Source: Yuukianura sp. NJ FZ-2021 (taxonomy: Eukaryota). Taken from it: a DNA stretch of 64,000 nt. Of the stretch, positions 6,001 through 62,759 are shown piece after piece (positions within the stretch are counted from its first letter, which is position 1; each line of letters opens with the position of its first letter). The position numbers and the translations under genes were made by a program. The notes beneath the pieces were generated by a model. It did not search any database, had not been told where the DNA came from, and worked only from the letters and a program-made list of their open reading frames with translations. Where the stretch lies: contig JAJCTO010000009.1 of NCBI GenBank assembly GCA_046563655.1, positions 558,001-622,000 on the forward strand. The letters are read 5' to 3'.

Positions 6001-9000
6001 TTTTTACCTTAAAATCCCCGATCTGAAATTACATAGCCTAAAAGTAAAGATTTAACTAAAAAAACGTGGCAAGACAAAATCCTGTTGTAGAACAGGCAAA
6101 CAGTAAAGATTTAACTAAAAAAACGTGGTAAGACAAAATCCTGTTGTAGAACAGGCAAACAGTAAAGATTTAACTAAAAAAACGTGGCAAGACAAAATCC
6201 TGTTGTAGAACAGGCAAACAGTGGAACTCAACATTGCCTCTAAGGCCTCAAAATTTAGGATTTAAGCCGTAAAACTCGTCAAAAAACCACTCTCTTATTT
6301 TCGGACATGTAAAGTGGTTTTTACCTTAAAATCCCCGATCTGAAATTACATAGCCTAAAAGTAAAGATTTAACTAAAAAAACGTGGCAAGACAAAATCCT
6401 GTTGTAGAACAGGCAAACAGTAAAGATTTAACTAAAAAAACGTGGCAAGACAAAATCCTGTTGTAGAACAGGCAAACAGTGGAACTCAACATTGCCTCTA
6501 AGGCCTCAAAATTTAGGATTTAAGCCGTAAAACTCGTCAAAAAACCACTCTCTTATTTTCGGACATGTAAAGTGGTTTTTACCTTAAAATCCCCGATCTG
6601 AAATTACATAGCCTAAAAGTAAAGATTTAACTAAAAAAACGTGGCAAGACAAAATCCTGTTGTAGAACAGGCAAACAGTGGAACTCAACATTGCCTCTAA
6701 GGCCTCAAAATTTAGGATTTAAGCCGTAAAACTCGTCAAAAAACCACTCTCTTATTTTCGGACATGTAAAGTGGTTTTTACCTTAAAATCCCCGATCTGA
6801 AATTACATAGCCTAAAAGTAAAGATTTAACTAAAAAAACGTGGCAAGACAAAATCCTGTTGTAGAACAGGCAAACAGTAAAGATTTAACTAAAAAAACGT
6901 GGCAAGACAAAATCCTGTTGTAGAACAGGCAAACAGTGGAACTCAACATTGCCTCTAAGGCCTCAAAATTTAGGATTTAAGCCGTAAAACTCGTCAAAAA
7001 ACCACTCTATTATTTTCGGACATGTAAAGTGGTTTTTACCTTAAAATCCCCGATCTGAAATTACATAGCCTAAAAGTAAAGATTTAACTAAAAAAACGTG
7101 GCAAGACAAAATCCTGTTGTAGAACAGGCAAACAGTGGAACTCAACATTGCCTCTAAGGCCTCAAAATTTAGGATTTAAGCCGTAAAACTCGTCAAAAAA
7201 CCACTCTCTTATTTTCGGACATGTAAAGTGGTTTTTACCTTAAAATCCCCGATCTGAAATTACATAGCCTAAAAGTAAAGATTTAACTAAAAAAACGTGG
7301 CAAGACAAAATCCTGTTGTAGAACAGGCAAACAGTAAAGATTTAACTAAAAAAACGTGGCAAGACAAAATCCTGTTGTAGAACAGGCAAACAGTGGAACT
7401 CAACATTGCCTCTAAGGCCTCAAAATTTAGGATTTAAGCCGTAAAACTCGTCAAAAAACCACTCTCTTATTTTCGGACATGTAAAGTGGTTTTTACCTTA
7501 AAATCCCCGATCTGAAATTACATAGCCTAAAAGTAAAGATTTAACTAAAAAAACGTGGCAAGACAAAATCCTGTTGTAGAACAGGCAAACAGTGGAACTC
7601 AACATTGCCTCTAAGGCCTCAAAATTTAGGATTTAAGCCGTAAAACTCGTCAAAAAACCACTCTCTTATTTTCGGACATGTAAAGTGGTTTTTACCTTAA
7701 AATCCCCGATCTGAAATTACATAGCCTAAAAGTAAAGATTTAACTAAAAAAACGTGGCAAGACAAAATCCTGTTGTAGAACAGGCAAACAGTAAAGATTT
7801 AACTAAAAAAACGTGGTAAGACAAAATCCTGTTGTAGAACAGGCAAACAGTAAAGATTTAACTAAAAAAACGTGGCAAGACAAAATCCTGTTGTAGAACA
7901 GGCAAACAGTGGAACTCAACATTGCCTCTAAGGCCTCAAAATTTAGGATTTAAGCCGTAAAACTCGTCAAAAAACCACTCTCTTATTTTCGGACATGTAA
8001 AGTGGTTTTTACTTAAAATCCCCGATCTGAAATTACATAGCCTAAAAGTAAAGATTTAACTAAAAAAACGTGGCAAGACAAAATCCTGTTGTAGAACAGG
8101 CAAACAGTAAAGATTTAACTAAAAAAACGTGGCAAGACAAAATCCTGTTGTAGAACAGGCAAACAGTGGAACTCAACATTACCTCTAAGGGCTCAAAATT
8201 TAGGATTTAAGCCGTAAAACTCGTCAAAAAACCACTCTCTTATTTTCGGACATGTAAAGTGGTTTTTACCTTAAAATCCCCGATCTGAAATTACATAGCC
8301 TAAAAGTAAAGATTTAACTAAAAAAACGTGGCAAGACAAAATCCTGTTGTAGAACAGGCAAACAGTGGAACTCAACATTGCCTCTAAGGCCTCAAAATTT
8401 AGGATTTAAGCCGTAAAACTCGTCAAAAAACCACTCTCTTATTTTCGGACATGTAAAGTGGTTTTTACCTTAAAATCCCCGATCTGAAATTACATAGCCT
8501 AAAAGTAAAGATTTAACTAAAAAAACGTGGCAAGACAAAATCCTGTTGTAGAACAGGCAAACAGTAAAGATTTAACTAAAAAAACGTGGCAAGACAAAAT
8601 CCTGTTGTAGAACAGGCAAACAGTAAAGATTTAACTAAAAAAACGTGGCAAGACAAAATCCTGTTGTAGAACAGGCAAACAGTGGAACTCAACATTACCT
8701 CTAAGGGCTCAAAATTTAGGATTTAAGCCGTAAAACTCGTCAAAAAACCACTCTCTTATTTTCGGACATGTAAAGTGGTTTTTACTTAAAATCCCCGATC
8801 TGAAATTACATAGCCTAAAAGTAAAGATTTAACTAAAAAAACGTGGCAAGACAAAATCCTGTTGTAGAACAGGCAAACAGTAAAGATTTAACTAAAAAAA
8901 CGTGGCAAGACAAAATCCTGTTGTAGAACAGGCAAACAGTGGAACTCAACATTACCTCTAAGGGCTCAAAATTTAGGATTTAAGCCGTAAAACTCGTCAA

Positions 9001-12000
9001 AAAACCACTCTCTTATTTTCGGACATGTAAAGTGGTTTTTACCTTTAAATCCCCGATCTGAAATTACATATTCTAAAAGTAAAGATTTAACTAAAAAAAC
9101 GTGGCAACACAAAATCCTGTTGTAGCACAGGCAAACAGTGGAACTCAACATTGCCTCCAAGGCCTCAAAATTTAGGATTTAAGCCGTAAAACTCGTCAAA
9201 AAACCACTCTATTATTTTCGGACATGTAAAGTGGTTTTTACCTTAAAATCCCCGATCTGAAATTACATATTCTAAAAGTAAAGATTTAACTAAAAAAACG
9301 TGGCAAGACAAAATCCTGTTGTAGAACAGGCAAACAGTAAAGATTTAACTAAAAAAACGTGGCAAGACAAAATCCTGTTGTAGAACAGGCAAACAGTGGA
9401 ACTCAACATTACCTCTAAGGGCTCAAAATTTAGGATTTAAGCCGTAAAACTCGTCAAAAAACCACTCTCTTATTTTCGGACATGTAAAGTGGTTTTTACC
9501 TTAAAATCCCCGATCTGAAATTACATAGCCTAAAAGTAAAGATTTAACTAAAAAAACGTGGCAAGACAAAATCCTGTTGTAGAACAGGCAAACAGTAAAG
9601 ATTTAACTAAAAAAACGTGGTAAGACAAAATGCTGTTGTAGAACAGGCAAACAGTAAAGATTTAACTAAAAAAACGTGGCAAGACAAAATCCTGTTGTAG
9701 AACAGGCAAACAGTGGAACTCAACATTGCCTCTAAGGCCTCAAAATTTAGGATTTAAGCCGTAAAACTCGTCAAAAAACCACTCTCTTATTTTCGGACAT
9801 GTAAAGTGGTTTTTACCTTAAAATCCCCGATCTGAAATTACATAGCCTAAAAGTAAAGATTTAACTAAAAAAACGTGGCAAGACAAAATCCTGTTGTAGA
9901 ACAGGCAAACAGTAAAGATTTAACTAAAAAAACGTGGCAAGACAAAATCCTGTTGTAGAACAGGCAAACAGTGGAACTCAACATTACCTCTAAGGGCTCA
10001 AAATTTAGGATTTAAGCCGTAAAACTCGTCAAAAAACCACTCTCTTATTTTCGGACATGTAAAGTGGTTTTTACCTTAAAATCCCCGATCTGAAATTACA
10101 TAGCCTAAAAGTAAAGATTTAACTAAAAAAACGTGGCAAGACAAAATCCTGTTGTAGAACAGGCAAACAGTAAAGATTTAACTAAAAAAACGTGGTAAGA
10201 CAAAATGCTGTTGTAGAACAGGCAAACAGTAAAGATTTAACTAAAAAAACGTGGCAAGACAAAATCCTGTTGTAGAACAGGCAAACAGTGGAACTCAACA
10301 TTGCCTCTAAGGCCTCAAAATTTAGGATTTAAGCCGTAAAACTCGTCAAAAAACCACTCTCTTATTTTCGGACATGTAAAGTGGTTTTTACCTTAAAATC
10401 CCCGATCTGAAATTACATAGCCTAAAAGTAAAGATTTAACTAAAAAAACGTGGCAAGACAAAATCCTGTTGTAGAACAGGCAAACAGTAAAGATTTAACT
10501 AAAAAAACGTGGCAAGACAAAATCCTGTTGTAGAACAGGCAAACAGTGGAACTCAACATTACCTCTAAGGGCTCAAAATTTAGGATTTAAGCCGTAAAAC
10601 TCGTCAAAAAACCACTCTCTTATTTTCGGACATGTAAAGTGGTTTTTACTTAAAATCCCCGATCTGAAATTACATAGCCTAAAAGTAAAGATTTAACTAA
10701 AAAAACGTGGCAAGACAAAATCCTGTTGTAGAACAGGCAAACAGTAAAGATTTAACTAAAAAAACGTGGCAAGACAAAATCCTGTTGTAGAACAGGCAAA
10801 CAGTGGAACTCAACATTACCTCTAAGGGCTCAAAATTTAGGATTTAAGCCGTAAAACTCGTCAAAAAACCACTCTCTTATTTTCGGACATGTAAAGTGGT
10901 TTTTACCTTTAAATCCCCGATCTGAAATTACATAGCCTAAAAGTAAAGATTTAACTAAAAAAACGTGGCAAGACAAAATCCTGTTGTAGAACAGGCAAAC
11001 AGTGGAACTCAACATTGCCTCTAAGGCCTCAAAATTTAGGATTTAAGCCGTAAAACTCGTCAAAAAACCACTCTCTTATTTTCGGACATGTAAAGTGGTT
11101 TTTACCTTAAAATCCCCGATCTGAAATTACATAGCCTAAAAGTAAAGATTTAACTAAAAAAACGTGGCAAGACAAAATCCTGTTGTAGAACAGGCAAACA
11201 GTAAAGATTTAACTAAAAAAACGTGGCAAGACAAAATCCTGTTGTAGAACAGGCAAACAGTGGAACTCAACATTGCCTCTAAGGCCTCAAAATTTAGGAT
11301 TTAAGCCGTAAAACTCGTCAAAAAACCACTCTCTTATTTTCGGACATGTAAAGTGGTTTTTACCTTAAAATCCCCGATCTGAAATTACATAGCCTAAAAG
11401 TAAAGATTTAACTAAAAAAACGTGGCAAGACAAAATCCTGTTGTAGAACAGGCAAACAGTAAAGATTTAACTAAAAAAACGTGGCAAGACAAAATCCTGT
11501 TGTAGAACAGGCAAACAGTGGAACTCAACATTACCTCTAAGGGCTCAAAATTTAGGATTTAAGCCGTAAAACTCGTCAAAAAACCACTCTCTTATTTTCG
11601 GACATGTAAAGTGGTTTTTACCTTAAAATCCCCGATCTGAAATTACAAAGCCTAAAAGTAAAGATTTAACTAAAAAAACGTGGCAAGACCAAATCCTGTT
11701 GTAGAACAGGCAAACAGTAAAGATTTAACTAAAAAAACGTGGTAAGACAAAATGCTGTTGTAGAACAGGCAAACAGTAAAGATTTAACTAAAAAAACGTG
11801 GCAAGACAAAATCCTGTTGTAGAACAGGCAAACAGTGGAACTCAACATTGCCTCTAAGGCCTCAAAATTTAGGATTTAAGCCGTAAAACTCGTCAAAAAA
11901 CCACTCTCTTATTTTCGGACATGTAAAGTGGTTTTTACCTTTAAATCCCCGATCTGAAATTACATAGCCTAAAAGTAAAGATTTAACTAAAAAAACGTGG

Positions 12001-15000
12001 CAAGACAAAATCCTGTTGTAGAACAGGCAAACAGTGGAACTCAACATTGCCTCTAAGGCCTCAAAATTTAGGATTTAAGCCGTAAAACTCGTCAAAAAAC
12101 CACTCTCTTATTTTCGGACATGTAAAGTGGTTTTTACCTTAAAATCCCCGATCTGAAATTACATAGCCTAAAAGTAAAGATTTAACTAAAAAAACGTGGC
12201 AAGACAAAATCCTGTTGTAGAACAGGCAAACAGTGGAACTCAACATTACCTCTAAGGGCTCAAAATTTAGGATTTAAGCCGTAAAACTCGTCAAAAAACC
12301 AGTCTCTTATTTTCGGACATGTAAAGTGGTTTTTACCTTAAAATCCCCGATCTGAAATTACATAGCCTAAAAGTAAAGATTTAACTAAAAAAACGTGGCA
12401 AGACAAAATCCTGTTGTAGAACAGGCAAACAGTAAAGATTTAACTAAAAAAACGTGGCAAGACAAAATCCTGTTGTAGAACAGGCAAACAGTGGAACTCA
12501 ACATTACCTCTAAGGGCTCAAAATTTAGGATTTAAGCCTTCAAACTCATCAAAAAACCAGCCTCTTATTTTTTGACATGTAAAGTGGTTTTTACCTTTAA
12601 ATCCCCGATCTGAAATTACATAGCCTAAAAGTAAAGATTTAACTAAAAAAACGTGGCAAGACAAAATCCTGTTGTAGAACAGGCAAACAGTGGAACTCAA
12701 CATTGCCTCTAAGGCCTCAAAATTTAGGATTTAAGCCGTAAAACTCGTCAAAAAACCACTCTCTTATTTTCGGACATGTAAAGTGGTTTTTACCTTAAAA
12801 TCCCCGATCTGAAATTACATAGCCTAAAAGTAAAGATTTAACTAAAAAAACGTGGCAAGACAAAATCCTGTTGTAGAACAGGCAAACAGTAAAGATTTAA
12901 CTAAAAAAACGTGGCAAGACAAAATCCTGTTGTAGAACAGGCAAACAGTGGAACTCAACATTGCCTCTAAGGCCTCAAAATTTAGGATTTAAGCCGTAAA
13001 ACTCGTCAAAAAACCACTCTATTATTTTCGGACATGTAAAGTGGTTTTTACCTTAAAATCCCCGATCTGAAATTACATAGCCTAAAAGTAAAGATTTAAC
13101 TAAAAAAACGTGGCAAGACAAAATCCTGTTGTAGAACAGGCAAACAGTGGAACTCAACATTGCCTCTAAGGCCTCAAAATTTAGGATTTAAGCCGTAAAA
13201 CTCGTCAAAAAACCACTCTCTTATTTTCGGACATGTAAAGTGGTTTTTACCTTAAAATCCCCGATCTGAAATTACATAGCCTAAAAGTAAAGATTTAACT
13301 AAAAAAACGTGGCAAGACAAAATCCTGTTGTAGAACAGGCAAACAGTAAAGATTTAACTAAAAAAACGTGGTAAGACAAAATCCTGTTGTAGAACAGGCA
13401 AACAGTAAAGATTTAACTAAAAAAACGTGGCAAGACAAAATCCTGTTGTAGAACAGGCAAACAGTGGAACTCAACATTGCCTCTAAGGCCTCAAAATTTA
13501 GGATTTAAGCCGTAAAACTCGTCAAAAAACCACTCTCTTATTTTCGGACATGTAAAGTGGTTTTTACCTTAAAATCCCCGATCTGAAATTACATAGCCTA
13601 AAAGTAAAGATTTAACTAAAAAAACGTGGCAAGACAAAATCCTGTTGTAGAACAGGCAAACAGTAAAGATTTAACTAAAAAAACGTGGCAAGACAAAATC
13701 CTGTTGTAGAACAGGCAAACAGTGGAACTCAACATTACCTCTAAGGGCTCAAAATTTAGGATTTAAGCCGTAAAACTCGTCAAAAAACCACTCTCTTATT
13801 TTCGGACATGTAAAGTGGTTTTTACCTTAAAATCCCCGATCTGAAATTACATAGCCTAAAAGTAAAGATTTAACTAAAAAAACGTGGCAAGACAAAATCC
13901 TGTTGTAGAACAGGCAAACAGTGGAACTCAACATTGCCTCTAAGGCCTCAAAATTTAGGATTTAAGCCGTAAAACTCGTCAAAAAACCACTCTCTTATTT
14001 TCGGACATGTAAAGTGGTTTTTACCTTAAAATCCCCGATCTGAAATTACATAGCCTAAAAGTAAAGATTTAACTAAAAAAACGTGGCAAGACAAAATCCT
14101 GTTGTAGAACAGGCAAACAGTAAAGATTTAACTAAAAAAACGTGGCAAGACAAAATCCTGTTGTAGAACAGGCAAACAGTGGAACTCAACATTACCTCTA
14201 AGGGCTCAAAATTTAGGATTTAAGCCGTAAAACTCGTCAAAAAACCACTCTCTTATTTTCGGACATGTAAAGTGGTTTTTACCTTTAAATCCCCGATCTG
14301 AAATTACATAGCCTAAAAGTAAAGATTTAACTAAAAAAACGTGGCAAGACAAAATCCTGTTGTAGAACAGGCAAACAGTAAAGATTTAACTAAAAAAACG
14401 TGGTAAGACAAAATCCTGTTGCAGAACAGGCAAACAGTGGAACTCAACATTGCCTCTAAGGGCTCAAAATTTAGGATTTAAGCCTTCAAACTTACCAAAA
14501 AACCAGCCTCTTATTTTTTGACATGTAAAGTGGTTTTTACCTTTAAATCCCCGATCTGAAATTACATAGCCTAAAAGTAAAGATTTAACTAAAAAAACGT
14601 GGCAAGACAAAATCCTGTTGTAGAACAGGCAAACAGTGGAACTCAACATTGCCTCTAAGGCCTCAAAATTTAGGATTTAAGCCGTAAAACTCGTCAAAAA
14701 ACCACTCTCTTATTTTCGGACATGTAAAGTGGTTTTTACCTTAAAATCCCCGATCTGAAATTACATAGCCTAAAAGTAAAGATTTAACTAAAAAAACGTG
14801 GCAAGACAAAATCCTGTTGTAGAACAGGCAAACAGTAAAGATTTAACTAAAAAAACGTGGCAAGACAAAATCCTGTTGTAGAACAAGCAAACAGTGGAAC
14901 TCAACATTACCTCTAAGGGCTCAAAATTTAGGATTTAAGCCGTAAAACTCGTCAAAAAACCACTCTCTTATTTTCGGACATGTAAAGTGGTTTTTACCTT

Positions 15001-18000
15001 AAAATCCCCGATCTGAAATTACATAGCCTAAAAGTAAAGATTTAACTAAAAAAACGTGGCAAGACAAAATCCTGTTGTAGAACAGGCAAACAGTGGAACT
15101 CAACATTACCTCTAAGGGCTCAAAATTTAGGATTTAAGCCTTCAAACTCACCAAAAAACCAGTCTCTTATTTTCGGACATGTAAAGTGGTTTTTACCTTT
15201 AAATCCCCGATCTGAAATTACATAGCCTAAAAGTAAAGATTTAACTAAAAAAACGTGGCAAGACAAAATCCTGTTGTAGAACAGGCAAACAGTAAAGATT
15301 TAACTAAAAAAACGTGGCAAGACAAAATCCTGTTGTAGAACAGGCAAACAGTGGAACTCAACATTACCTCTAAGGGCTCAAAATTTAGGATTTAAGCCGT
15401 AAAACTCGTCAAAAAACCACTCTCTTATTTTCGGACATGTAAAGTGGTTTTTACCTTAAAATCCCCGATCTGAAATTACATAGCCTAAAAGTAAAGATTT
15501 AACTAAAAAAACGTGGCAAGACAAAATCCTGTTGTAGAACAGGCAAACAGTGGAACTCAACATTGCCTCTAAGGCCTCAAAATTTAGGATTTAAGCCGTA
15601 AAACTCGTCAAAAAACCACTCTCTTATTTTCGGACATGTAAAGTGGTTTTTACCTTAAAATCCCCGATCTGAAATTACATAGCCTAAAAGTAAAGATTTA
15701 ACTAAAAAAACGTGGCAAGACAAAATCCTGTTGTAGAACAGGCAAACAGTAAAGATTTAACTAAAAAAACGTGGCAAGACAAAATCCTGTTGTAGAACAG
15801 GCAAACAGTGGAACTCAACATTACCTCTAAGGGCTCAAAATTTAGGATTTAAGCCGTAAAACTCGTCAAAAAACCACTCTCTTATTTTCGGACATGTAAA
15901 GTGGTTTTTACCTTAAAATCCCCGATCTGAAATTACATAGCCTAAAAGTAAAGATTTAACTAAAAAAACGTGGCAAGACAAAATCCTGTTGTAGAACAGG
16001 CAAACAGTAAAGATTTAACTAAAAAAACGTGGTAAGACAAAATGCTGTTGTAGAACAGGCAAACAGTAAAGATTTAACTAAAAAAACGTGGCAAGACAAA
16101 ATCCTGTTGTAGAACAGGCAAACAGTGGAACTCAACATTGCCTCTAAGGCCTCAAAATTTAGGATTTAAGCCGTAAAACTCGTCAAAAAACCACTCTCTT
16201 ATTTTCGGACATGTAAAGTGGTTTTTACCTTTAAATCCCCGATCTGAAATTACATAGCCTAAAAGTAAAGATTTAACTAAAAAAACGTGGCAAGACAAAA
16301 TCCTGTTGTAGAACAGGCAAACAGTAAAGATTTAACTAAAAAAACGTGGCAAGACAAAATCCTGTTGTAGAACAGGCAAACAGTGGAACTCAACATTACC
16401 TCTAAGGGCTCAAAATTTAGGATTTAAGCCGTAAAACTCGTCAAAAAACCACTCTCTTATTTTCGGACATGTAAAGTGGTTTTTACCTTAAAATCCCCGA
16501 TCTGAAATTACATAGCCTAAAAGTAAAGATTTAACTAAAAAAACGTGGCAAGACAAAATCCTGTTGTAGAACAGGCAAACAGTAAAGATTTAACTAAAAA
16601 AACGTGGTAAGACAAAATGCTGTTGTAGAACAGGCAAACAGTAAAGATTTAACTAAAAAAACGTGGCAAGACAAAATCCTGTTGTAGAACAGGCAAACAG
16701 TGGAACTCAACATTGCCTCTAAGGCCTCAAAATTTAGGATTTAAGCCGTAAAACTCGTCAAAAAACCACTCTCTTATTTTCGGACATGTAAAGTGGTTTT
16801 TACCTTTAAATCCCCGATCTGAAATTACATAGCCTAAAAGTAAAGATTTAACTAAAAAAACGTGGCAAGACAAAATCCTGTTGTAGAACAGGCAAACAGT
16901 GGAACTCAACATTGCCTCTAAGGCCTCAAAATTTAGGATTTAAGCCGTAAAACTCGTCAAAAAACCACTCTCTTATTTTCGGACATGTAAAGTGGTTTTT
17001 ACCTTAAAATCCCCGATCTGAAATTACATAGCCTAAAAGTAAAGATTTAACTAAAAAAACGTGGCAAGACAAAATCCTGTTGTAGAACAGGCAAACAGTA
17101 AAGATTTAACTAAAAAAACGTGGCAAGACAAAATCCTGTTGTAGAACAGGCAAACAGTGGAACTCAACATTACCTCTAAGGGCTCAAAATTTAGGATTTA
17201 AGCCGTAAAACTCGTCAAAAAACCACTCTCTTATTTTCGGACATGTAAAGTGGTTTTTACCTTTAAATCCCCGATCTGAAATTACATAGCCTAAAAGTAA
17301 AGATTTAACTAAAAAAACGTGGCAAGACAAAATCCTGTTGTAGAACAGGCAAACAGTAAAGATTTAACTAAAAAAACGTGGTAAGACAAAATCCTGTTGC
17401 AGAACAGGCAAACAGTGGAACTCAACATTGCCTCTAAGGGCTCAAAATTTAGGATTTAAGCCGTAAAACTCGTCAAAAAACCACTCTTTTATTTTCGGAC
17501 ATGTAAAGTGGTTTTTACCTTTAAATCCCCGATCTGAAATTACATAGCCTAAAAGTAAAGATTTAACTAAAAAAACGTGGCAAGACAAAATCCTGTTGTA
17601 GAACAGGCAAACAGTGGAACTCAACATTGCCTCTAAGGCCTCAAAATTTAGGATTTAAGCCGTAAAACTCGTCAAAAAACCACTCTCTTATTTTCGGACA
17701 TGTAAAGTGGTTTTTACCTTAAAATCCCCGATCTGAAATTACATAGCCTAAAAGTAAAGATTTAACTAAAAAAACGTGGCAAGACAAAATCCTGTTGTAG
17801 AACAGGCAAACAGTAAAGATTTAACTAAAAAAACGTGGCAAGACAAAATCCTGTTGTAGAACAGGCAAACAGTGGAACTCAACATTGCCTCTAAGGCCTC
17901 AAAATTTAGGATTTAAGCCGTAAAACTCGTCAAAAAACCACTCTCTTATTTTCGGACATGTAAAGTGGTTTTTACCTTTAAATCCCCGATCTGAAATTAC

Positions 18001-19439
18001 ATAGCCTAAAAGTAAAGATTTAACTAAAAAAACGTGGCAAGACAAAATCCTGTTGTAGAACAGGCAAACAGTAAAGATTTAACTAAAAAAACGTGGCAAG
18101 ACAAAATCCTGTTGTAGAACAGGCAAACAGTGGAACTCAACATTACCTCTAAGGGCTCAAAATTTAGGATTTAAGCCGTAAAACTCGTCAAAAAACCACT
18201 CTCTTATTTTCGGACATGTAAAGTGGTTTTTACCTTAAAATCCCCGATCTGAAATTACATAGCCTAAAAGTAAAGATTTAACTAAAAAAACGTGGCAAGA
18301 CAAAATCCTGTTGTAGAACAGGCAAACAGTAAAGATTTAACTAAAAAAACGTGGTAAGACAAAATGCTGTTGTAGAACAGGCAAACAGTAAAGATTTAAC
18401 TAAAAAAACGTGGCAAGACAAAATCCTGTTGTAGAACAGGCAAACAGTGGAACTCAACATTGCCTCTAAGGCCTCAAAATTTAGGATTTAAGCCGTAAAA
18501 CTCGTCAAAAAACCACTCTCTTATTTTCGGACATGTAAAGTGGTTTTTACCTTAAAATCCCCGATCTGAAATTACATAGCCTAAAAGTAAAGATTTAACT
18601 AAAAAAACGTGGCAAGACAAAATCCTGTTGTAGAACAGGCAAACAGTGGAACTCAACATTGCCTCTAAGGCCTCAAAATTTAGGATTTAAGCCGTAAAAC
18701 TCGTCAAAAAACCACTCTCTTATTTTCGGACATGTAAAGTGGTTTTTACCTTAAAATCCCCGATCTGAAATTACATAGCCTAAAAGTAAAGATTTAACTA
18801 AAAAAACGTGGCAAGACAAAATCCTGTTGTAGAACAGGCAAACAGTGGAACTCAACATTACCTCTAAGGGCTCAAAATTTAGGATTTAAGCCGTAAAACT
18901 CGTCAAAAAACCACTCTCTTATTTTCGGACATGTAAAGTGGTTTTTACCTTTAAATCCCCGATCTGAAATTACATAGCCTAAAAGTAAAGATTTAACTAA
19001 AAAAACGTGGCAAGACAAAATCCTGTTGTAGAACAGGCAAACAGTAAAGATTTAACTAAAAAAACGTGGCAAGACAAAATCCTGTTGTAGAACAGGCAAA
19101 CAGTGGAACTCAACATTGCCTCTAAGGGCTCAAAATTTAGGATTTAAGCCTTCAAACTTACCAAAAAACCACTCTCTTATTTTCGGACATGTAAAGTGGT
19201 TTTTACCTTTAAATCCCCGATCTGAAATTACATAGCCTAAAAGTAAAGATTTAACTAAAAAAACGTGGCAAGACAAAATCCTGTTGTAGAACAGGCAAAC
19301 AGTGGAACTCAACATTGCCTCTAAGGCCTCAAAATTTAGGATTTAAGCCGTAAAACTCGTCAAAAAACCACTCTCTTATTTTCGGACATGTAAAGTGGTT
19401 TTTACCTTAAAATCCCCGATCTGAAATTACATAGCCTAA
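1..19439. repeat. Satellite DNA array, left block; monomer = 140-bp core + n x 59-bp subrepeat (199/258/317 bp)
   Basis: CTCGTCAAAA recurs at 1, 259 and 458 (periods 258 and 199). The subrepeat AGTAAAGATTTAACTAAAAAAACGTGGCAAGACAAAATCCTGTTGTAGAACAGGCAAAC is 59 bp and occurs 1-3 times per monomer. Copies are nearly identical. Confidence 0.99.
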
Positions 19440-19451
19440 CAAGGTAGGGCA

Positions 19452-19470
19452 GTGCTCAAGGGTTGAGCAC
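19452..19470 (-). other. 3' terminal stem-loop of the HINE
   Basis: Perfect 8-bp stem GTGCTCAA/TTGAGCAC with a 3-nt loop, between the subTIR and the element end. Confidence 0.85.
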
Positions 19471-20110
19471 AGATCTTCTGGAGGGAGTTGACAATTGATA
19501 CGACATTGCGACCGGCCTACCGCAAAACTGTACGCACAAAATGCACAAAATTGAACGTTAAGAAGAAGGGGTCGAATATCGTTCTTGATTGATGTTCTTC
19601 ATTTCTTGAGGAAGATGCACATATGTATTGTCGATGTTGCCATGGCAATGCTCAAGGTAGTTCTCACAACTGCACAAACCTTCAATTGTGTGCATCATGC
19701 ACAAAATTGTACGTTGTGGGGTAGGGGTCCAATATCGTTTCTTTAAAATCAAAATCAAAGAAATTTATTGTGAATGCAAATTTGAACCCTCCCATTCGCT
19801 GCTTACATGTTACGAATTTAAACCGGAGTTTGAGCCCTCTCATCAGTCCCAAATTAACAACGTAAATAAACATACTGTCAGAAAATGACCAGGTCAAAAC
19901 TTCGTTGTTTATAAATATTTTGAGTGCAATCGAAACCAAAACAGTTTTGCGGAGCCACGATACTGCGGGTACGTAAAGTAGCCGCCAACTTTTACGTTGT
20001 TAATTTAACACTTTGAGTGCAATGTAGACCTACTGAAAACTCTTGAGCCATACATAACCCCCCGACTGCGATGGGGCTAATGTTTCAGTACAATGAGTCC
20101 TAAAAAACGT

Positions 20111-20133
20111 GACAGACGGACGGACAGACGGAC
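20111..20133 (-). repeat. GTCY tetranucleotide microsatellite in the HINE
   Basis: GACAGACGGACGGACAGACGGAC on plus, which reads (GTCC/GTCT)n on minus. Confidence 0.9.
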
Positions 20134-20147
20134 AAAGTCGTATCAAT

Positions 20148-20189
20148 AGTCTTCTTCAGCACGTCGTAGACGTGCGTCTCCAGAAGACT
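20148..20189 (-). other. 5' hairpin of the HINE
   Basis: AGTCTTCT (20148-20155) pairs with AGAAGACT (20182-20189). Inner stem GCACGTC-GTA-GACGTGC (20159-20175). Confidence 0.85.
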
Positions 20190-20302
20190 AAAAGTAAAGA
20201 TTTAACTAAAAAAACGTGGCAAGACAAAATCCTATTGTAGAACAGTCAAACAGTAAAGATTTAACTAAAAAAACGTGGCAAGACAAAATCCTGTTGTAGA
20301 AC
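20190..20302. repeat. Satellite remnant (two 59-bp subrepeats, the second cut by the P element) between the two insertions
   Basis: The satellite resumes in register after the HINE and continues in register at 25526. Confidence 0.97.
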
Positions 20303-20386
20303 CATAGAGTTACCAAGGCGACTCAATTTTTTTTTCTTTTAACTAGAGTGGACATAAGGCATTTTTTCAACAAAATTTTTGAAGCA
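20303..20386 (+). repeat. Left terminal inverted repeat (84 bp)
   Basis: CATAGAGTTACCAAGGCGACTCAATT...TTTTGAAGCA is the reverse complement of 25442-25525 apart from 2 positions. Confidence 0.97.
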
Positions 20387-20730
20387 TTTACAAAGCGGAA
20401 AAAAAACCGTTTTCATCTTAAATTTAAGCCAGGTACACACAAACTATGGATTGCAGGTTTCATTTTTGAAAATTTCGAAAATTTTTCGCGAATTCCTGAA
20501 AAAGTTAAATCTAGCATTTTGTTTTTCAGAGAAACTATCAACCCTATTCTGTAATTCTGGAAAATGCTACTAGTAGTGGTGTGGACGTAGATAGTAACTA
20601 TAGATTAGTTAATTTAACGTTTGAATTTACTTTAGCTGTCTTTAATTACTTGAAACTATTCGGAATTAAGAGAGATTTTATTTTACAGCAGAGTTTAAAT
20701 TGGAAAATTGGAAATACTCTGAATCTAACA

Positions 20731-23622
20731 CTACTGACCTCTGAAAATTACAGTTTTGTTACAAGTGTTACGAATAGTAGTTGGGTTTAGCTTAATGGTT
20801 TCCTGTCTGGCAATGTAATGAAACCTAATCTTACAGTATTGTCTAATGACCAAGCGAAGCAAAGTAAGCACGTGGGAAGACTCAAAAGTGTGTTCGTCCA
20901 TGCTGATCATCCTCAATTCTCCGAAGATATCCCCTTGCTGAAGGCTTTGGAGGGTGACGACGAGGACTTTTTCGACATTCAGCTTGTCAGCCCCTTGGGA
21001 TTGGTGAAGGCGAATCACTTGCTCCGTCTGCTTACAAGTTTCGATAAGATCCGGAGATGGAATGAAGAGCCCCTGGTCCGGAATTCCGAATTGGGAAGCT
21101 TGCTCCCGAGTACTTTGGCTTTGCTTCTCGGCCAGTAGAATAAAATCAGATCTGCAAAACAAATTGAGAATTATATTACTTTGTGACGTTAATTTAGTAA
21201 AATTGCATCAAATACCTTAAATACTGAAGTGAAGGTTCTAACACAGTTAAAGCATTACGACAAATTGGGCAATCTAGTAATTTTGAAATATTCCGACCAA
21301 CGAATCCAGCAATATACACGACGATGTTATTGACAAAAGTCGAAAGGTTCTCCATGGATGAGAATTCAGGCATATCTTCATCATCGTCATCGACTTCTGC
21401 CACATTCGCTTTAGCGACAGGAACAAGCGTTCCACAATCCATTTCCTCTTGAGGGATTCAATTTCCGGTGCTGCCAGGATCCATCTTAACGGAAAGTATT
21501 GACCGTAATGCGGCCATTAGTTGAAGAATGTTTGGATTATTATTGTTTCCGAGTCGCTTCCGAACAACGCCAAAAAAGAGTTCCAGTGGGTCCTGGCACA
21601 GTCGATAAGTCGGAAGATAACTGAAAAAAATATATATTCTTTAACATCGTTAACTCGGAACTAAATTCAATGCCGTAGATCATTACCTCAGTTGTCGGTT
21701 CAAAGGAATAACAAACTTCTCGAAAATCAGCTCTATACTGCAGATGAGAATATACCAGCCAGTAATACAAGTCTTCCTTCGAGTTTTAGCTAGTTCCACC
21801 CATTTCGAAGTTTCAATTCCTTCGTGTGACATAATGGTATCCTCGACCGAAAGAGATTTAAGGTATGACTTGGCGTACTTCATGAAGTCTCGCCAACGTG
21901 CCATGTTCTCAACCTTGAGCGGAGCCTTGTATCCAATTCCATTTGGACGAGAATTGCATAGGTCAAACAATCTGAAAGTTAAGATACATATTACAAATGT
22001 AAAAATGCAGAAACGTTAAATATGATAAACAGTTTACTTGTCGCTAATCCGAAGAAACTTGACAGTTGCCTCACACCCTTCAAACTCTTTGATACCCATT
22101 TTTCGGGATGCCTCGAGTGCTGCAGCCACCGACGAACTTAGCAACTGGGTCGAGAGTTTGACCTTCATCTTCTGTTGGTGAAATAGGACATGACGATACG
22201 ACAACTTGTTACCAGCGCGTAATCCTTCTTTAGACTGAATTTCTTGGAGCTGTTCCATGTAACGCCAGTTGATAATGTTACCTTCATCGTCCTTCAGCTC
22301 CTGGTAATGTTCTAGTGTGTTTCGCAACAGCTTTTGCAAGTAGACGACATCTGGAAGCACAAACACATCATCTCCAGTTGTTGGATGGGGAAATGAAGGC
22401 TTAAATCCAGCGTCGTCTAGGTCAAGATTCGCGTGGAGACGTTTGCAAGCGTTGAAATTTGCAGTTAAGCCGTCAAAAACTACACCAATCACATTTGAGT
22501 TTACTTCAGCCATTTTCTCCAAGGATGCTTTCAGAATAGTAGAAATCAGCATTGCACTGCTTCCATCGGTAAGGAAGTATGCGATCGGCAATTTGGTGTT
22601 TCCATTTATGCTCCTGGCGTAGACAAAAAGGGCATCGGTCGCAACTTTCCGTTTGGGAAGGACGTCGAGGTTTCCATAATTGACATAGCCAATCATCTTC
22701 TCGTTGTTGACGTGAAGTATTTGCTTCCTGATTGCGATCTCATCAATAATTAGTACATATAACAACCGGTTGTTCTTCATATTAGCTTCCTTCAACGACT
22801 TCAAACAATCTTCTAGGAATCCTGGCTGGACCCCAATCCAGTCATGCCATCTGGAAATTGTTCTCAAACAAGGAATATACTTGAATTCCGTTCTCAAAGC
22901 ATTATAAGCTGCCGCGGAGTAATAGGACACTTTAGTTGCCAACTGTCGGGTTTTTTTGTTGTACTGCTTGCCTTCCTTTGTCATTCTGGAGCTGATTGAT
23001 TGGGACCAGTTTCTGTTGTTTGTACCTTTGTTGACACAAGTTTCTTTGGGCGTTTCAGAGTTGGAGTGATCTTTGCAATTGTTGCCCGCCTACGTATCAT
23101 TTGATGGAGTGACTTGATTTGGGCATCTTTTGCACCGATGCGGCGTTCCAGGACGGATATTTTAGATTTCAAAATCGAGATCTCACGTTTTTGCGTTTCT
23201 ACTAGTTCAATTAGTTCCTCTGGTGTCTTTTCAGCCACGGCATGTAACCCTTCAGTTGAGCAAGCATGAAGTAGACTTGAGTTTTTTGAATCAATATTTT
23301 CACCTCCGGATGTTACTACTTGAGTGGGAAAATGTCCAGCCAGAATTCGCCGTCCTCTTCGAAACGGTTGGAAGCAGCAAGTTTTGAAATGACGGCTGCA
23401 AATTCTACTGGCGTTTGACAGGTTTGGCTCAGCTTGATTACAATCCCGGACGAAGCTCAACCAGGTTTTGCGTTCATCCGTGAGAGGAAATCTAAGTTTA
23501 ATAGAAAATATGAAATAAAACATTAAATTTGCTTATGATAAAATGAATCACACTTACTTATGCAAGCTAATACCACTTTGGCAAAGCTTGCTACAGTTCC
23601 GAATAAGGCAGCAGTTAACCAT
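20731..23622 (-). pseudogene. P-element/THAP9-like transposase, 5 exons, ~876 aa when repaired; disabled
   Basis: Exons: 23622-23558, 23491-22038, 21971-21687, 21620-21216, 21151-20731, with GT-AG introns. THAP zinc finger (MVNCCLIRNC...KFP...W...CSRHF) then a coiled coil. Family motifs: IIDEIAIRK, VVFDG, KMKVKLSTQLLSSSVA, LFDLCNS, TYRLCQDPLELFFGVVR..GNNNNP. Lesions: frame shift near 22981-22984, in-frame TGA at 21460-21458, and Tyr at the expected His of DxxH. AATAAA at 20682-20677. Confidence 0.92.
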
Positions 23623-24151
23623 CCTTGATATTCTGCAAAGTAATTCGAAAGCAAGAAATTAAAATAATAGTTTTTCGAAAAGTCGACATCAAACATTCCA
23701 GACGAAGGTACAGGTTTTAGCAAGCTATTATTATAATTATTATTGTTATTATTATATTATTCATTAATTTTTACTACTATTTATCAAGGAAAGGGCATCA
23801 ATTTTTGCGATCAAAATTTTGGTAAAAAGGAATTTGAATGTTTTAACGCTAAAGGGTCGCTCAGCTGGTCCAAAGTCTGGACTCCCGTCAAAAAAACCAT
23901 GGGGGGAGGACGGTCACTTTCAGTTATAGTATATAAATAACGCTAATCTTAAATTGTTAATACTAGTCATCGAATCCTACGTAAAAATAAACAATTAAAT
24001 TGATATATTTACAATAACTGATTGTAGTGAATTACCAACATCATGAAAATTTTAAATAATATTGTACACTATACCAAGAATCAAACTATACAGCTGAAAC
24101 AAATTTTTATTTGGAATGAATCATTATAAACAGAATATTATAATCATAGAA

Positions 24152-24910
24152 TTATTTTGGTTGTGGAATGGATGATATTTTCAGAGGGAAGCCTGCCTTT
24201 TTTCGATCTGCTTCACTCAAATTTTTGTGAAATAGTTTGACAAGTGGTTCAGATATTTCTAAAACTCTACGCAATTCTTGTTCCCGCTTTCTCTGTCTCA
24301 TGAGGAATTCGTAGTTGCGTTGGACGCGGTAATTGTCAGCATCTTCAAGTCTTTTTATCCTCTCAGCTTCAGTTTCTTTCGGCTTTTCAAGTTCTTTGGC
24401 CTCCTTTTCTTTCCGTTTCTTGATATCCTTCTTTGTTTTTTCGATTGCCTTTCCAAGAATTCTCTGCAATTCAGTTTCATTTTTTTTTCGTTCACGTTTT
24501 TCTTGCTCCCATTTTCTATTTCTTTCTCTTTTTTGTTCTCGTGTCAGTGTATTCTAAGAAGATATAAAAAAGAAAAATTTTAGTGAAATAAAAATCATTT
24601 GTTGTATAAGTTTCAATTTCAGAATTTTCGCAGTACTTTGCAACATATAAACTTTCGCAAAAATTTCCCCCCCATAGTTTTACGAAAATTTTTGGCATGA
24701 CCCGTTTAGTATTTACCACCAAAAAAAAATTAACTGGCAGATATGTGCACAGTCAATCTCTTAGTTAAAAATTAGTCAAAAAACGAAAGATTTCCACAAC
24801 AATTTCAAAATTTCATGTTTTTAACTTACGTTTTGTGACGATGCTCCTGCTGAAGATGTTGATGCTGTCGAAGTAGATGAAGTCGATGAAGCCGCAGGCT
24901 GTTCCTCCAT
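24152..24910 (-). CDS. Putative two-exon accessory gene inside the transposon; 160-aa protein with Ser/Thr/Ala-rich N-terminus and Lys/Glu/Arg-rich helical region, function unknown
   Basis: ATG at 24910. Exon 1 (24910-24830) encodes MEEQPAASSTSSTSTASTSSAGASSQN and ends at a GTAAGT donor. The 276-bp intron ends in a pyrimidine tract and TAG. Exon 2 (24553-24152) is in frame with the listed 105-aa ORF. AATAAA lies ~40 nt after the stop (24111-24106). Confidence 0.72.
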
Positions 24911-25441
24911 TCCTAGTCACCACTAGTCAGTATCGTGCCGATTTCTAGTCCTATTTCTAGTCATTAGTGTAACATAGTTAAGTCAATAATTTAGATAAAA
25001 ACCGTACTTTCGCCTGGAATTTTAATTTTATAAAAGCAAGAACAAGATAACACAAACTTACCTTTAGGCACCAATTGTAGTTGAAACGGATACGTAGGTA
25101 GTAGGTAGTAGCTTAGATGTAGTTAGGTTTAGATGTAATTAAGTTAAATATTAGTAATTAGAATTACTAAATAGTGACTTTAATTTAACTTTTTGCAAGA
25201 GCAATTTTAGCAGGAGGACGAATTGTTGGGTTGCTGTAACCTCTTCCGGGCATACTACTAGTCACCAGTTGTATCGTGACAGCTATGGGCAGATATTTTG
25301 TCTCAAAATCCCTGTTTTCCGCATTTTTATTCATAATTTTAGAAATTTTGAACACTGAAAATCAAAATTTCATTTTTTGTGTGAACATTGCTGAAACTTC
25401 GGATGAAAGCGGTTTTTTACCTCTTTTAACCTCTTTTAATT

Positions 25442-25525
25442 TGCTTCAAAAATTTTGTTGAAAAAATGCCTTATGTCCACTCTAGTTAAAAGAAAAAAAA
25501 ATCGAGTCGCTTTGGTAACTCTATG
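25442..25525 (-). repeat. Right terminal inverted repeat (84 bp)
   Basis: TGCTTCAAAAATTTTG...GAGTCGCTTTGGTAACTCTATG, followed by the TSD TGTAGAAC. Confidence 0.97.
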
Positions 25526-28500
25526 TGTAGAACAGGCAAACAGTGGAACTCAACATTGCCTCTAAGGCCTCAAAATTTAGGATTTAAGCCGTAAAACTCC
25601 TCAAAAAACCACTCTCTTATTTTCGGACATGTAAAGTGGTTTTTACCTTTAAATCCCCGATCTGAAATTACATAGCCTAAAAGTAAAGATTTAACTAAAA
25701 AAACGTGGCAAGACAAAATCCTGTTGTAGAACAGGCAAACAGTAAAGATTTAACTAAAAAAACGTGGCAAGACAAAATCCTGTTGTAGAACAGGCAAACA
25801 GTGGAACTCAACATTACCTCTAAGGGCTCAAAATTTAGGATTTAAGCCGTAAAACTCGTCAAAAAACCACTCCCTTATTTTCGGACATGTAAAGTGGTTT
25901 TTACCTTAAAATCCCCGATCTGAAATTACAAAGCCTAAAAGTAAAGATTTAACTAAAAAAACGTGGCAAGACCAAATCCTGTTGTAGAACAGGCAAACAG
26001 TAAAGATTTAACTAAAAAAACGTGGTAAGACAAAATGCTGTTGTAGAACAGGCAAACAGTAAAGATTTAACTAAAAAAACGTGGCAAGACAAAATCCTGT
26101 TGTAGAGCAGGCAAACAGTGGAACTCAACATTGCCTGTAAGGCCTCAAAATTTAGGATTTAAGCCGTAAAACTCGTCAAAAAACCACTCTCTTATTTCCG
26201 GACATGTAAAGTGGTTTTTACCTTTAAATCCCCGATCTGAAATTACATAGCCTAAAAGTAAAGATTTAACTAAAAAAACGTGGCAAGACAAAATCCTGTT
26301 GTAGAACAGGCAAACAATGGAACTCAACATTGCCTCTAAGGCCTTAAAATTTAGAATTTAAGCCGTAAAACTTGTCAAAAAACCACTCTCTTATTTTCGG
26401 ACATGTAAGTGGTTTTTACCTTAAAATCCCCGATCTGAAATTACATAGCCTAAAAGTAAAGATTTAACTAAAAAAAACGTGGCAAGACAAAATCCTGTTG
26501 TAGAACAGGCAAACAGTGGAACTCAACATTACCTCTAAGGGCTCAAAATTTAGGATTTAAGCCGTAAAACTCGTCAAAAAACCAGTCTCTTATTTTCTGA
26601 CATGTAAAGTGGTTTTTACCTTTAAATCCCCGATCTGAAATTACATAGCCTAAAAGTAAAGATTTAACTAAAAAAACGTGGCAAGACAAAATCCTGTTGT
26701 AGAACAGGCAAACAGTAAAGATTTAACTAAAAAAACGTGGCAAGACAAAATCCTGTTGTAGAACAGGCAAACAGTGGAACTCAACATTGCCTCTAAGGGC
26801 TCAAAATTTAGGATTTAAGCCTTCAAACTTACCAAAAAACCACTCTCTTATTTTCGGACATGTAAAGTGGTTTTTACCTTTAAATCCCCGATCTGAAATT
26901 ACATAGCCTAAAAGTAAAGATTTAACTAAAAAAACGTGGCAAGACAAAATCCTGTTGTAGAACAGGCAAACAGTGGAACTCAACATTGCCTCTAAGGCCT
27001 CAAAATTTAGGATTTAAGCCGTAAAACTCGTCAAAAAACCACTCTCTTATTTTCGGACATGTAAAGTGGTTTTTACCTTAAAATCCCCGATCTGAAATTA
27101 CATAGCCTAAAAGTAAAGATTTAACTAAAAAAACGTGGCAAGACAAAATCCTGTTGTAGAACAGGCAAACAGTAAAGATTTAACTAAAAAAACGTGGCAA
27201 GACAAAATCCTGTTGTAGAACAGGCAAACAGTGGAACTCAACATTACCTCTAAGGGCTCAAAATTTAGGATTTAAGCCGTAAAACTCGTCAAAAAACCAC
27301 TCTCTTATTTTCGGACATGTAAAGTGGTTTTTACCTTAAAATCCCCGATCTGAAATTACATAGCCTAAAAGTAAAGATTTAACTAAAAAAACGTGGCAAG
27401 ACAAAATCCTGTTGTAGAACAGGCAAACAGTAAAGATTTAACTAAAAAAACGTGGTAAGACAAAATGCTGTTGTAGAACAGGCAAACAGTAAAGATTTAA
27501 CTAAAAAAACGTGGCAAGACAAAATCCTGTTGTAGAACAGGCAAACAGTGGAACTCAACATTGCCTCTAAGGCCTCAAAATTTAGGATTTAAGCCGTAAA
27601 ACTCGTCAAAAAACCACTCTCTTATTTTCGGACATGTAAAGTGGTTTTTACTTAAAATCCCCGATCTGAAATTACATAGCCTAAAAGTAAAGATTTAACT
27701 AAAAAAACGTGGCAAGACAAAATCCTGTTGTAGAACAGGCAAACAGTAAAGATTTAACTAAAAAAACGTGGCAAGACAAAATCCTGTTGTAGAACAGGCA
27801 AACAGTGGAACTCAACATTACCTCTAAGGGCTCAAAATTTAGGATTTAAGCCGTAAAACTCGTCAAAAAACCACACCCTTATTTTCGGACATGTAAAGTT
27901 GTTTTTACCTTAAAATCCCCGATCTGAAATTACAAAGCCTAAAAGTAAAGATTTAACTAAAAAAACGTGGCAAGACCAAATCCTGTTGTAGAACAGGCAA
28001 ACAGTAAAGATTTAACTAAAAAAACGTGGTAAGACAAAATGCTGTTGTAGAACAGGCAAACAGTAAAGATTTAACTAAAAAAACGTGGCAAGACAAAATC
28101 CTGTTGTAGAACAGGCAAACAGTGGAACTCAACATTGCCTCTAAGGCCTCAAAATTTAGGATTTAAGCCGTAAAACTCGTCAAAAAACCACTCTTTTATT
28201 TTCGGACATGTAAAGTGGTTTTTACTTAAAATCCCCGATCTGAAATTACATAGCCTAAAAGTAAAGATTTAACTAAAAAAACGTGGCAAGACAAAATCCT
28301 GTTGTAGAACAGGCAAACAGTAAAGATTTAACTAAAAAAACGTGGCAAGACAAAATCCTGTTGTAGAACAGGCAAACAGTGGAACTCAACATTACCTCTA
28401 AGGGCTCAAAATTTAGGATTTAAGCCGTAAAACTCGTCAAAAAACCACTCTCTTATTTTCGGACATGTAAAGTGGTTTTTACCTTTAAATCCCCGATCTG

Positions 28501-55928: not shown

Positions 55929-56309
55929 TGTAACGCCCTACGACGCTAAACAACTGAAAAACACAACTGGAGCAATCACTGCCGCTCCGCACCAGACTAT
56001 CTCTCTGAGCCCACAGGCTCTCAGACCCAAATGACCCCAAACAATCACCACTGCTCACAACAACATCGACGGATAAATATATTTATATATTTATTCGTCG
56101 CAAATAAAATATACAACAAAAACCTCCGTCTCACGCAGAGACCAAAACCAGACTAACTACTAAAAGGCGACTGCAACTCCCGAACCTCTGCATCTCCGTG
56201 GCCATCATCCTCATCCATGGGCATCAGCGGAGTCTTCATCATGGTAATCGTCAACCGCAGCATCCGATTCCTCCCGAGCGCTCCATCCAAAGCGTCAGGC
56301 ACTTCAACA
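55929..56309 (-). repeat. Putative 3' LTR (~381 bp, TGTTG...TTACA on minus)
   Basis: Directly preceded by the purine tract GAGAAGAAGAA. Shares AGTCTGGTTTTGG and an AT-rich TAAATATA block with the 383-bp LTR at 62374, and ends similarly (CGTTACA vs CGCTACA). Confidence 0.65.
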
Positions 56310-57052
56310 TTCTTCTTCTCACTCACTACATCACTTTCAGTTTTTAAATTCATGTTCGGCAAAATTCTTGCTAAAAAACTGAGTCCACTGCATTTCCACA
56401 AGCGTTCAGCACCTCCTTCCTTCACTTTACGGGACAGTGAGACCCTCGGCTGAACTTGTAGACAATGAGCACAACTCAAACACAAATAAGCGGAGGCCAA
56501 TAAATTGACTCCCATTAAGTGCCACAGATTCTGAGTTCCACCTTCCTTCACTTTACGGGACAGTGAGACCCACGACTCAGAACTTGTGCACAGAAAACCA
56601 CCGCACTTCAACCAAACTATATCCAATAATTTCACATCATCACATTTGCACGAACTTTTCACTTTTTCAATTTTTAAATTTTGAGGGAATGAGACCCTGA
56701 ACGTCACAATGCATGTAGCACAAGAAACGCTGCGAGCCAGCAATGCCAGGACAACGATCTTCATTGCAATTTTAAACTCATTTTCAATTTCTTCTTTCTG
56801 ATCACTTAGTACCGCAGCACTGTAACTTTCAATTTTGACAACTTGAGTAACGCCGCACTTCAGCACTGCCGGGCTAACGTTCTCCATCATTTTAACTCTC
56901 ACAATTAACACTTTTTGTAGATACTCACTGTTTGAATCTTGAGTAACGCCGCACTTCAGCATCGCCGGGCGTACGTTCCCCTTCATTTTAACACTCAGAA
57001 CTAACACTGTTTGTAAAAGCCCACATTTTGGAGCTTGAGCAACGGTGGTCAT
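56153..57052 (-). CDS. Hypothetical 299-aa ORF with internal repeats (PAxLKCGVT x2, VSLSRKVKEGG x2)
   Basis: Open frame. Repeat spacings of 96 and 126 bp are multiples of 3, and the same peptides occur in ORF 63664-63975. No recognisable domain, and the ORF runs through the PPT into the LTR. Confidence 0.3.
   Translation of the reverse strand: MTTVAQAPKCGLLQTVLVLSVKMKGNVRPAMLKCGVTQDSNSEYLQKVLIVRVKMMENVSPAVLKCGVTQVVKIESYSAAVLSDQKEEIENEFKIAMKIVVLALLARSVSCATCIVTFRVSFPQNLKIEKVKSSCKCDDVKLLDIVWLKCGGFLCTSSESWVSLSRKVKEGGTQNLWHLMGVNLLASAYLCLSCAHCLQVQPRVSLSRKVKEGGAERLWKCSGLSFLARILPNMNLKTESDVVSEKKNVEVPDALDGALGRNRMLRLTITMMKTPLMPMDEDDGHGDAEVRELQSPFSS
56310..56320 (-). other. Putative polypurine tract
   Basis: GAGAAGAAGAA immediately 5' of the TG that starts the putative LTR. 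Confidence 0.6.
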
Positions 57053-62373: not shown

Positions 62374-62756
62374 TGAGACGCCTGCTCGTCCATAGCGTTA
62401 GTAGAGTGTTAGGATAGGGGCAAGGTGAGATGACGATGTGGCTCGCGGTAGATTTGAGTTGAGGCGAGGAGCGAGCGAGCAGAGGAGTTTTGTATAGAGT
62501 TAGTCAGTCTGGTTTTGGGATTGTGGGAGAGAGGAGATCAGAGTTAGATATTATTTAGTGATGATTGATTATTGTGTATATTGATTATTTTTCATCAGTT
62601 ATTAAATATATTTTATATATTTAACCACTGATGTGGTTTTGGTGTTTCGGTGAGTTTTGGTCTTTGGGCAGTTGTGGGATCTGCTGATCAGTGATGAGAG
62701 TCTGAGGGCGTGGCTGCGGCCATATTTCTGGAGGAGTAGCGGTGCGAGACGCTACA
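62374..62756 (+). repeat. 5' LTR (~383 bp, TGAGACG...CGCTACA)
   Basis: TG...CA ends, an adjacent PBS, and similarity to 55929-56309. The right end could instead be 62758. Confidence 0.72.
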
Positions 62757-62759
62757 CAG

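Follow-up and report, generated by a model that had tools for sequence, protein, structure and literature searches.

P elements are the textbook one-gene transposon of eukaryotes, and their regulation is understood via isoforms of the transposase. In the excerpt of PMC7776569 used here, the 2.9-kb P element of Drosophila melanogaster is described as having four ORFs, which give rise only to an 87-kDa transposase and a 66-kDa repressor, and the canonical element as making 8-bp duplications. The same excerpt describes the architecture of the transposase, which recurs in the element analyzed here: a THAP domain, a coiled-coil, an HTH and an RNase H domain that is split by a GTP-binding domain (PMC7776569). 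Galileo and 1360 also have P-type transposases and share with this element inverted ends that are much longer than 31 bp; they differ from it in that the parts of their descriptions considered here mention only a transposase.

Accessory proteins that bind the transposase are documented, in the excerpt of PMC12973397 on which we rely, for the MULE, PIF/Harbinger and CACTA superfamilies. PIF/Harbinger with a Myb-like protein, CACTA/En-Spm with TnpA and MuDR with MURB each combine a transposase and a smaller non-catalytic protein within the same inverted repeats, and in this arrangement they resemble the element described below. They belong to other superfamilies, however, and in the product of the candidate gene neither a Myb/SANT nor any other known domain was found, nor any relation in sequence or fold to their second proteins; furthermore, the second gene is in our case a candidate. 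Our search of the literature, in the portions that it covered, turned up no P-superfamily element described as having a second gene.

The element reported here resembles the Drosophila P element in its multi-exon gene, its 8-bp target duplication, its terminal inverted repeats and its many internally deleted derivatives. It differs in size (5.2 kb versus 2.9 kb), in the length of the inverted ends (~100-190 nt), in having five short introns of 50-66 nt, and in a 1.9-kb 5' region with an unrelated two-exon frame. Its membership in the P superfamily is clear; its second gene, if real, would be new for this superfamily.

The window, i.e. the whole stretch of 64,000 nucleotides that was analyzed, has a GC content of ~35% and consists mostly of a satellite array (1-19439 and 25526 to ~55000) with a core unit of 59 nt and higher-order periods of 199, 258, 317 and 457 nt. 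The array is broken by a 5223-bp element at 20303-25525; directly to the left of the element lies a non-satellite stretch (19440-20302). Copies of these sequences were judged from assembled contigs of three DNA runs of one sample, which is probably the window's own source. Many of these contigs break at 20111 and 20193 within the non-satellite stretch, which suggests the edge of another repeat family. In some contigs positions 20146-20154 are joined to runs of GGTTA, i.e. to the TTAGG-type telomere repeat that is typical of arthropods; no telomere-type repeat occurs within the window. Two further segments, 56153-57714 and 62000-64000, have a raised GC content (0.40) and long frames, among them a 303-aa frame with a repeated LKCGVTQ-like motif; a Pfam search gave no match for the frames in these segments.

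The ends of the element are composed of the following features.

20295-20302, no strand: left copy of the target-site duplication TGTAGAAC, part of the satellite unit
20303-20404, plus strand: 3' terminal inverted repeat of the element, beginning with CATAGAG; similarity continues more weakly to ~20483
25424-25525, minus strand: 5' terminal inverted repeat of the element; similarity continues more weakly to ~25335
25526-25533, no strand: right copy of the target-site duplication TGTAGAAC, identical to the left copy

The inverted repeat is 102 nt long and 91% complementary, with 84 of the first 86 nt identical; a weaker similarity between the two ends extends to ~190 nt. The 8-bp duplication, which is the length found in the P superfamily, is perfect on both flanks. 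Because it belongs to the satellite unit, removal of the element together with one copy of the duplication restores the satellite repeat. An "empty" form was indeed seen in the sample contigs as a joint that skips 5231 bases, although such a joint is expected in a tandem array anyway and proves little. The initial annotation had described the element as CATAGAG-ended. The 3' end does start with this motif, but the motif by itself is not significant (2 matches versus 2.4 expected); it is therefore the inverted repeat and the 8-bp duplication that delimit the element. The inverted-repeat end had 0 matches when contigs of bacterial and archaeal genomes were scanned.

The element has the following transposase gene.

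23558-23622, minus strand: exon 1, with the transposase ATG (23622) and the start of the THAP domain, which has two Cys
23026-23491, minus strand: exon 2, with the rest of the THAP domain followed by the coiled-coil region
22038-22975, minus strand: exon 3, with the P-element HTH, the N-terminal part of RNase H and the GTP-binding insertion domain
21687-21971, minus strand: exon 4
21216-21620, minus strand: exon 5, with the C-terminal part of RNase H and an in-frame TGA (21460-21458)
20731-21151, minus strand: exon 6, with the C-terminal domain including the stop codon

This six-exon model, which was guided by homologues and by the nearest relative found, the metagenome contig L075, comprises 859 codons and introns of 66, 50, 66, 66 and 64 nt. 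The best relatives of the transposase in databases are only 38% identical; the transposase of L075 is 45-51% identical. All five Pfam domains of P transposases were recovered: THAP (PF05485, E 3e-6, 28.3 bits versus a cut-off of 23.9, with the Cys-rich start in exon 1), P-element HTH (PF12017, E 3e-8), the N-terminal part of RNase H (PF21787, E 2.3e-30), the GTP-binding insertion domain (PF21788, E 1.7e-32) and the C-terminal part of RNase H (PF21789, E 2.9e-12). Together with the inverted ends and the 8-bp duplication, these domains bear out the earlier assignment to the P superfamily: the segment 20303-25525 is a cut-and-paste DNA transposon of this type.

The uninterrupted transposase frame of an autonomous copy is not found here. 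Codon 639 of the 859 is TGA (21460-21458), at a position where the homologues have a conserved Cys; past this codon the frame is open again and the matches to homologues continue. This copy of the transposase was probably disabled recently. The in-frame TGA looks like a recent knockout or, by analogy with the 66-kDa/KP products of Drosophila P, like the end of a truncated repressor-like product. A frameshift between 23089 and 22981 was also considered and rejected, because the segment contains a frame-compatible intron of 50 nt, to which a homologous and equally very short intron of 47 nt corresponds in L075.

The comparison with L075 is informative beyond this intron. Both loci have the same THAP start, with an acceptor ahead of the transposase ATG, and they share an alignable sub-terminal repeat motif (34 nt at 82%, E 2.5e-4; two weaker matches are collinear with it). 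A tandem motif of AAAGAGG, a spacer and AAAAGAGGTA is common to 25418-25450 at the 5' end of the element and to positions 41-74 of L075; judged from its sequence it is a candidate binding site for the transposase (THAP). The two loci differ in that the THAP domain of L075 is encoded in one exon, in that L075 has no frame resembling the candidate gene, and in the distance from the inverted repeat to the ATG, which is ~0.6 kb in L075 versus 1.9 kb in this element. Since the start of L075 aligns with the sub-terminal inverted repeat, the ~0.6 kb before its ATG leave no room for such a gene. The absence of the gene from L075 means that the segment is either a lineage-specific addition to the present element or was lost in L075.

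The 1.9 kb between the 5' end of the element and the transposase ATG contain the candidate gene, which lies between the 5' inverted repeat and the transposase and on the same (minus) strand as the latter.

25056-25064, minus strand: upstream consensus donor AAG/GTAAGT, cut between 25062 and 25061
24830-24910, minus strand: exon 1 of the candidate gene, 81 nt, ATG plus 26 codons, rich in Ser/Thr/Ala
24554-24829, minus strand: intron of the candidate gene, 276 nt, phase 0, GTAAGT...TCTTAG
24152-24553, minus strand: exon 2 of the candidate gene, 402 nt, 133 codons plus TAA (24154-24152)
23623-24151, minus strand: spacer between the two reading frames, 529 nt, without codon periodicity, holding AATAAA

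The initial annotation had proposed a two-exon gene with an ATG, a GTAAGT donor, a pyrimidine-rich acceptor, an in-frame join, a downstream AATAAA and a product of 160 aa, and each of these parts was found in place. The ATG (24910-24908) is preceded by an in-frame TGA three codons upstream. The donor reads AAC/GTAAGT, with the intron starting at 24829, and the acceptor reads ...TATATCTTCTTAG/AAT with a pyrimidine tract ahead of TCTTAG. This acceptor, at 24554, has 12 pyrimidines in 14 positions and is the higher of only two interior sites with at least 11 of 14. The AATAAA is located at 24111-24106, 41 nt past the TAA. The further donor AAG/GTAAGT, which had been reported near 25060, is present as well; the 70 nt ahead of it contain no ATG, and a non-coding leader exon may end here.

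The data also agree with the proposal that this gene is separate from the transposase. The transposase has an ATG of its own at 23622, which opens a typical Cys-rich THAP N-terminus that is completed after the 66-nt intron; the upstream ORF is therefore a unit of its own and not a set of transposase exons. Derivation of the gene from the transposase was considered and rejected, because the product has no similarity to the N-terminal and coiled-coil region of this element's transposase. The idea of a nested insertion, bounded by a 26-nt inverted repeat (23625-23650/24626-24651), was discarded because this repeat is no better than many chance pairs.

A separate unit could still be used by the transposase transcript. 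The transposase ATG is preceded at a distance of 10 nt by an acceptor (AG at 23634-23633), and its counterpart in L075 has the same position, which implies a spliced leader. A scan of the whole element on its coding strand found only three GTAAGT donors, at 25061, 24829 and 23557; the first two serve the region of the candidate gene and are the only strong upstream donors from which such a leader could be spliced. The two exons could accordingly be alternative 5' leader exons of the transposase transcript, with a frame that is at most a uORF throttling translation. We consider this explanation improbable. The scan detected no strong donor between exon 2 and the transposase ATG, so that exon 2, which is followed by AATAAA, reads as a terminal rather than an internal exon. 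Furthermore, regulatory uORFs are usually far shorter than 160 codons.

The more serious question is whether the frame codes for a protein at all. Exon 2 is A-rich (47% A, 16% T), the codons of the candidate gene are dominated by AAA, GAA and AGA in an A-rich, low-complexity sequence, and the region is partly open in other frames, with a second sense frame of 62 aa and antisense frames of 106 and 74 aa; the composition therefore has to be controlled for. The frame could be fortuitous or decaying, in a 5' region which grew by A-rich non-coding insertions and which makes no functional protein. The purine-rich, low-complexity composition, which leaves these other frames open, is what such an origin would produce.

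Shuffled sequences speak against it. When exon 2 alone was shuffled with its dinucleotides preserved, the frame stayed open in 2 of 2000 cases, and any frame of at least 130 codons occurred in 9 of 2000. Dinucleotide shuffles of the whole 1.75-kb 5' region produced an ORF of at least 133 codons in 11 of 2000 cases, and block shuffles of this region with blocks of 50, 100 and 200 nt did so in 4, 13 and 12 of 2000. A complete model with ATG, donor, acceptor and ORF, i.e. an ATG-started one- or two-exon model of at least 160 aa, appeared only once when the ~1.7-kb 5' region was dinucleotide-shuffled 1000 times. Furthermore, the start of the frame coincides with the interior acceptor of highest score, and an AATAAA comes after its end. 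All of these P values are optimistic, since the frame was picked after scanning the whole window, a fact that counts on the side of chance.

The codon statistics point both ways. The chi-square for codon position is 16.1 in exon 2, compared with 2-4 in intron, spacer and leader and 19-38 in 399-nt windows of the transposase. The periodicity of exon 2 is hence four-fold above that of the flanking non-coding parts, which argues against a chance frame, but it is marginal (P 0.045) against a Markov null that already forbids stops. The GC content at third positions of the candidate gene is 0.30 versus 0.45 in the transposase, and its third-position composition is close to background, as expected of a chance frame. 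The intact 480-nt ORF is in itself no sign of selection, because the transposase beside it carries a nonsense codon in this copy. Taken together, the shuffle and periodicity figures favor a real coding unit, optimistic as they are.

The predicted product consists of an acidic tail of 27 residues, rich in Ser/Thr/Ala, and of 133 other residues with a pI of 10.1 and a net charge of +16. These contain two clusters of Lys/Arg, KRERKK and KKRKEK, which in their sequence look like nuclear-localization signals. AlphaFold, run without an alignment, modeled helices at 5-55, 62-111 and 114-120 (mean pLDDT 85.9, pTM 0.38), so that the product is predicted to be almost wholly helical outside the acidic tail. 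The previous description of a basic, helical product is in line with the calculated charge and with the two long helices of this model. Hydrophobic residues occupy 0.29 of the a/d core positions in helix 1 and 0.57 in helix 2. Foldseek found no match for the model, and VIA-align returned only generic long helices in a flat list (Z at most 6.4). One bZIP chain occurs among these tied generic helices (Z 6.1), and an identity as bZIP was rejected: no bZIP family was found in Pfam at E up to 10, and helix 1 has few hydrophobic a/d positions.

Relatives of the candidate product were looked for in several kinds of data. A HMMER search of 1.84 billion cluster representatives with the exon-2 product found no homologue; the single match, to a 3161-aa Thr-rich repeat protein, covers only a short stretch that is repeated six times and is read as spurious. 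None of the 39 candidates from a word-index search reached E 0.01. The best Atlas value was 0.80, with a recognition of 1583 versus 2300 typical of known families; this value is within the range of shuffled sequences. Pfam contained no family at E up to 1, and also no Myb/SANT domain at E up to 10, where the only row was an unrelated one with E 2.4. There was no relative in PHROGs, among PDB sequences (best E 0.13), or in the metagenome and viral scans. These results speak for a chance frame: the product is an orphan in every search made, its Atlas recognition is that of a shuffled sequence, and the segment is missing from the nearest relative, L075.

The same picture emerged from related transposons. 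None of 80 related P loci encodes a relative of the candidate product (best E 2.5). Of the loci, 23 have 1.2 kb or more ahead of the transposase, and none of these 23 has a charged upstream ORF of at least 100 codons, the share of K+R+E being at most 0.22. Flanking inverted repeats were found in 2 of 14 related loci examined; one locus flanked in this way, L011, has a single intronless transposase and no second gene.

In the initial annotation the gene had been read as a possible sign of a two-gene P lineage or else as a captured host gene. What holds of the first proposal is the presence of a separate unit with consensus signals that is statistically unusual. A deep two-gene lineage is unlikely, because no homologue was found and the nearest relative has too short a 5' region to hold the gene. 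The data fit better with a gene that was acquired recently and in this lineage only, whether by capture or de novo.

If the segment was captured, it need not serve the element. It could be a passenger, i.e. all or part of a rapidly evolving host gene that was taken up by transduplication and that plays no role in transposition. The retained intron, a third-position GC far below that of the transposase and the fact that the segment is extra relative to L075 are in agreement with such an origin. On the other hand, the lack of a homologue among the proteins of other organisms in the HMMER representatives means that it is not a conserved host gene, and the unit, which is complete from ATG to polyadenylation signal and oriented like the transposase, exceeds a typical captured fragment. 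We therefore regard a passenger as unlikely, though less so than a mere leader.

The sample contigs bear on the same question. Those listed include contigs that are ~91% identical to the window over 24389-24758, one with 31 differences and 2 gaps and another with 28 differences and 14 gaps; these could be the host copy of a captured gene. One diverged contig aligns on both sides but not across 23960-24666, a stretch that includes exon 2. It is taken as a deleted or highly diverged copy, and no conclusion is drawn from it. Within the intron of the candidate gene, the part 24588-24774 has a contig depth of 348 versus ~90-195 in its neighbors (run X1), and a small dispersed repeat may be located there.

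For the element as a whole, the contig depth reaches thousands and more over both ends versus ~50-350 over the interior, and contig joints bypass 4.2-4.7 kb of internal sequence, as is to be expected if internally deleted derivatives, which lack both genes, are present. The sample also contains a second P subfamily (window positions 22160-22943), ~82% identical, whose transposase variant is 82% identical over 22160-22611. In the part of the transposase variant that corresponds to 22741-22876, 15 of the 25 differences listed affect third codon positions, and 11 of the 47 codons are altered; this excess of third positions indicates that members of the family diverged under some constraint on the transposase.

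Weighing these data, we find it plausible from the sequence that this P element has a lineage-specific second gene. Our tentative reading, which we do not call probable, is that this gene is real and that its product works for the element as a small helper or regulator in the nucleus. A fortuitous or decaying frame is a strong competitor, if somewhat doubtful in view of the shuffles.

The tentative reading of a second gene suggests the following scenario. One young P sub-lineage would have acquired, 5' of the transposase and on the same strand, a separate two-exon coding unit. The unit is not needed to complete the transposase. With its NLS-like Lys/Arg clusters the product would probably enter the nucleus and, by analogy with the second proteins of Harbinger, CACTA and MuDR, might act for the element as a small helper or regulator that binds nucleic acid, chromatin or the transposase. 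A role in targeting, anti-silencing or regulation, as had been suggested before, would be pure conjecture. Both genes may be served by one 5' promoter, with a non-coding leader that ends at the 25062 donor. This leader could be spliced towards the exon with the ATG (24910), giving a transcript that ends at the AATAAA, or else to the acceptor that precedes the transposase ATG by 10 nt. A more far-reaching version of this scenario, which we rate as rather unlikely, is that of a first P-superfamily lineage with a true accessory gene: a small, nuclear, highly basic and helical protein that is expressed beside the transposase from the 5' promoter of the element, through alternative splicing and polyadenylation, and that modulates transposition or silencing.

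If the frame is not functional, the locus is an ordinary case, namely a defective P copy that sits in satellite DNA and whose 5' region has expanded. If the second gene is real, it would represent a further independent origin of the two-protein design, beside those of Harbinger, CACTA and Mutator. The absence of the gene from the nearest relative would then mean that a second gene has been caught early, soon after it was captured or born de novo.
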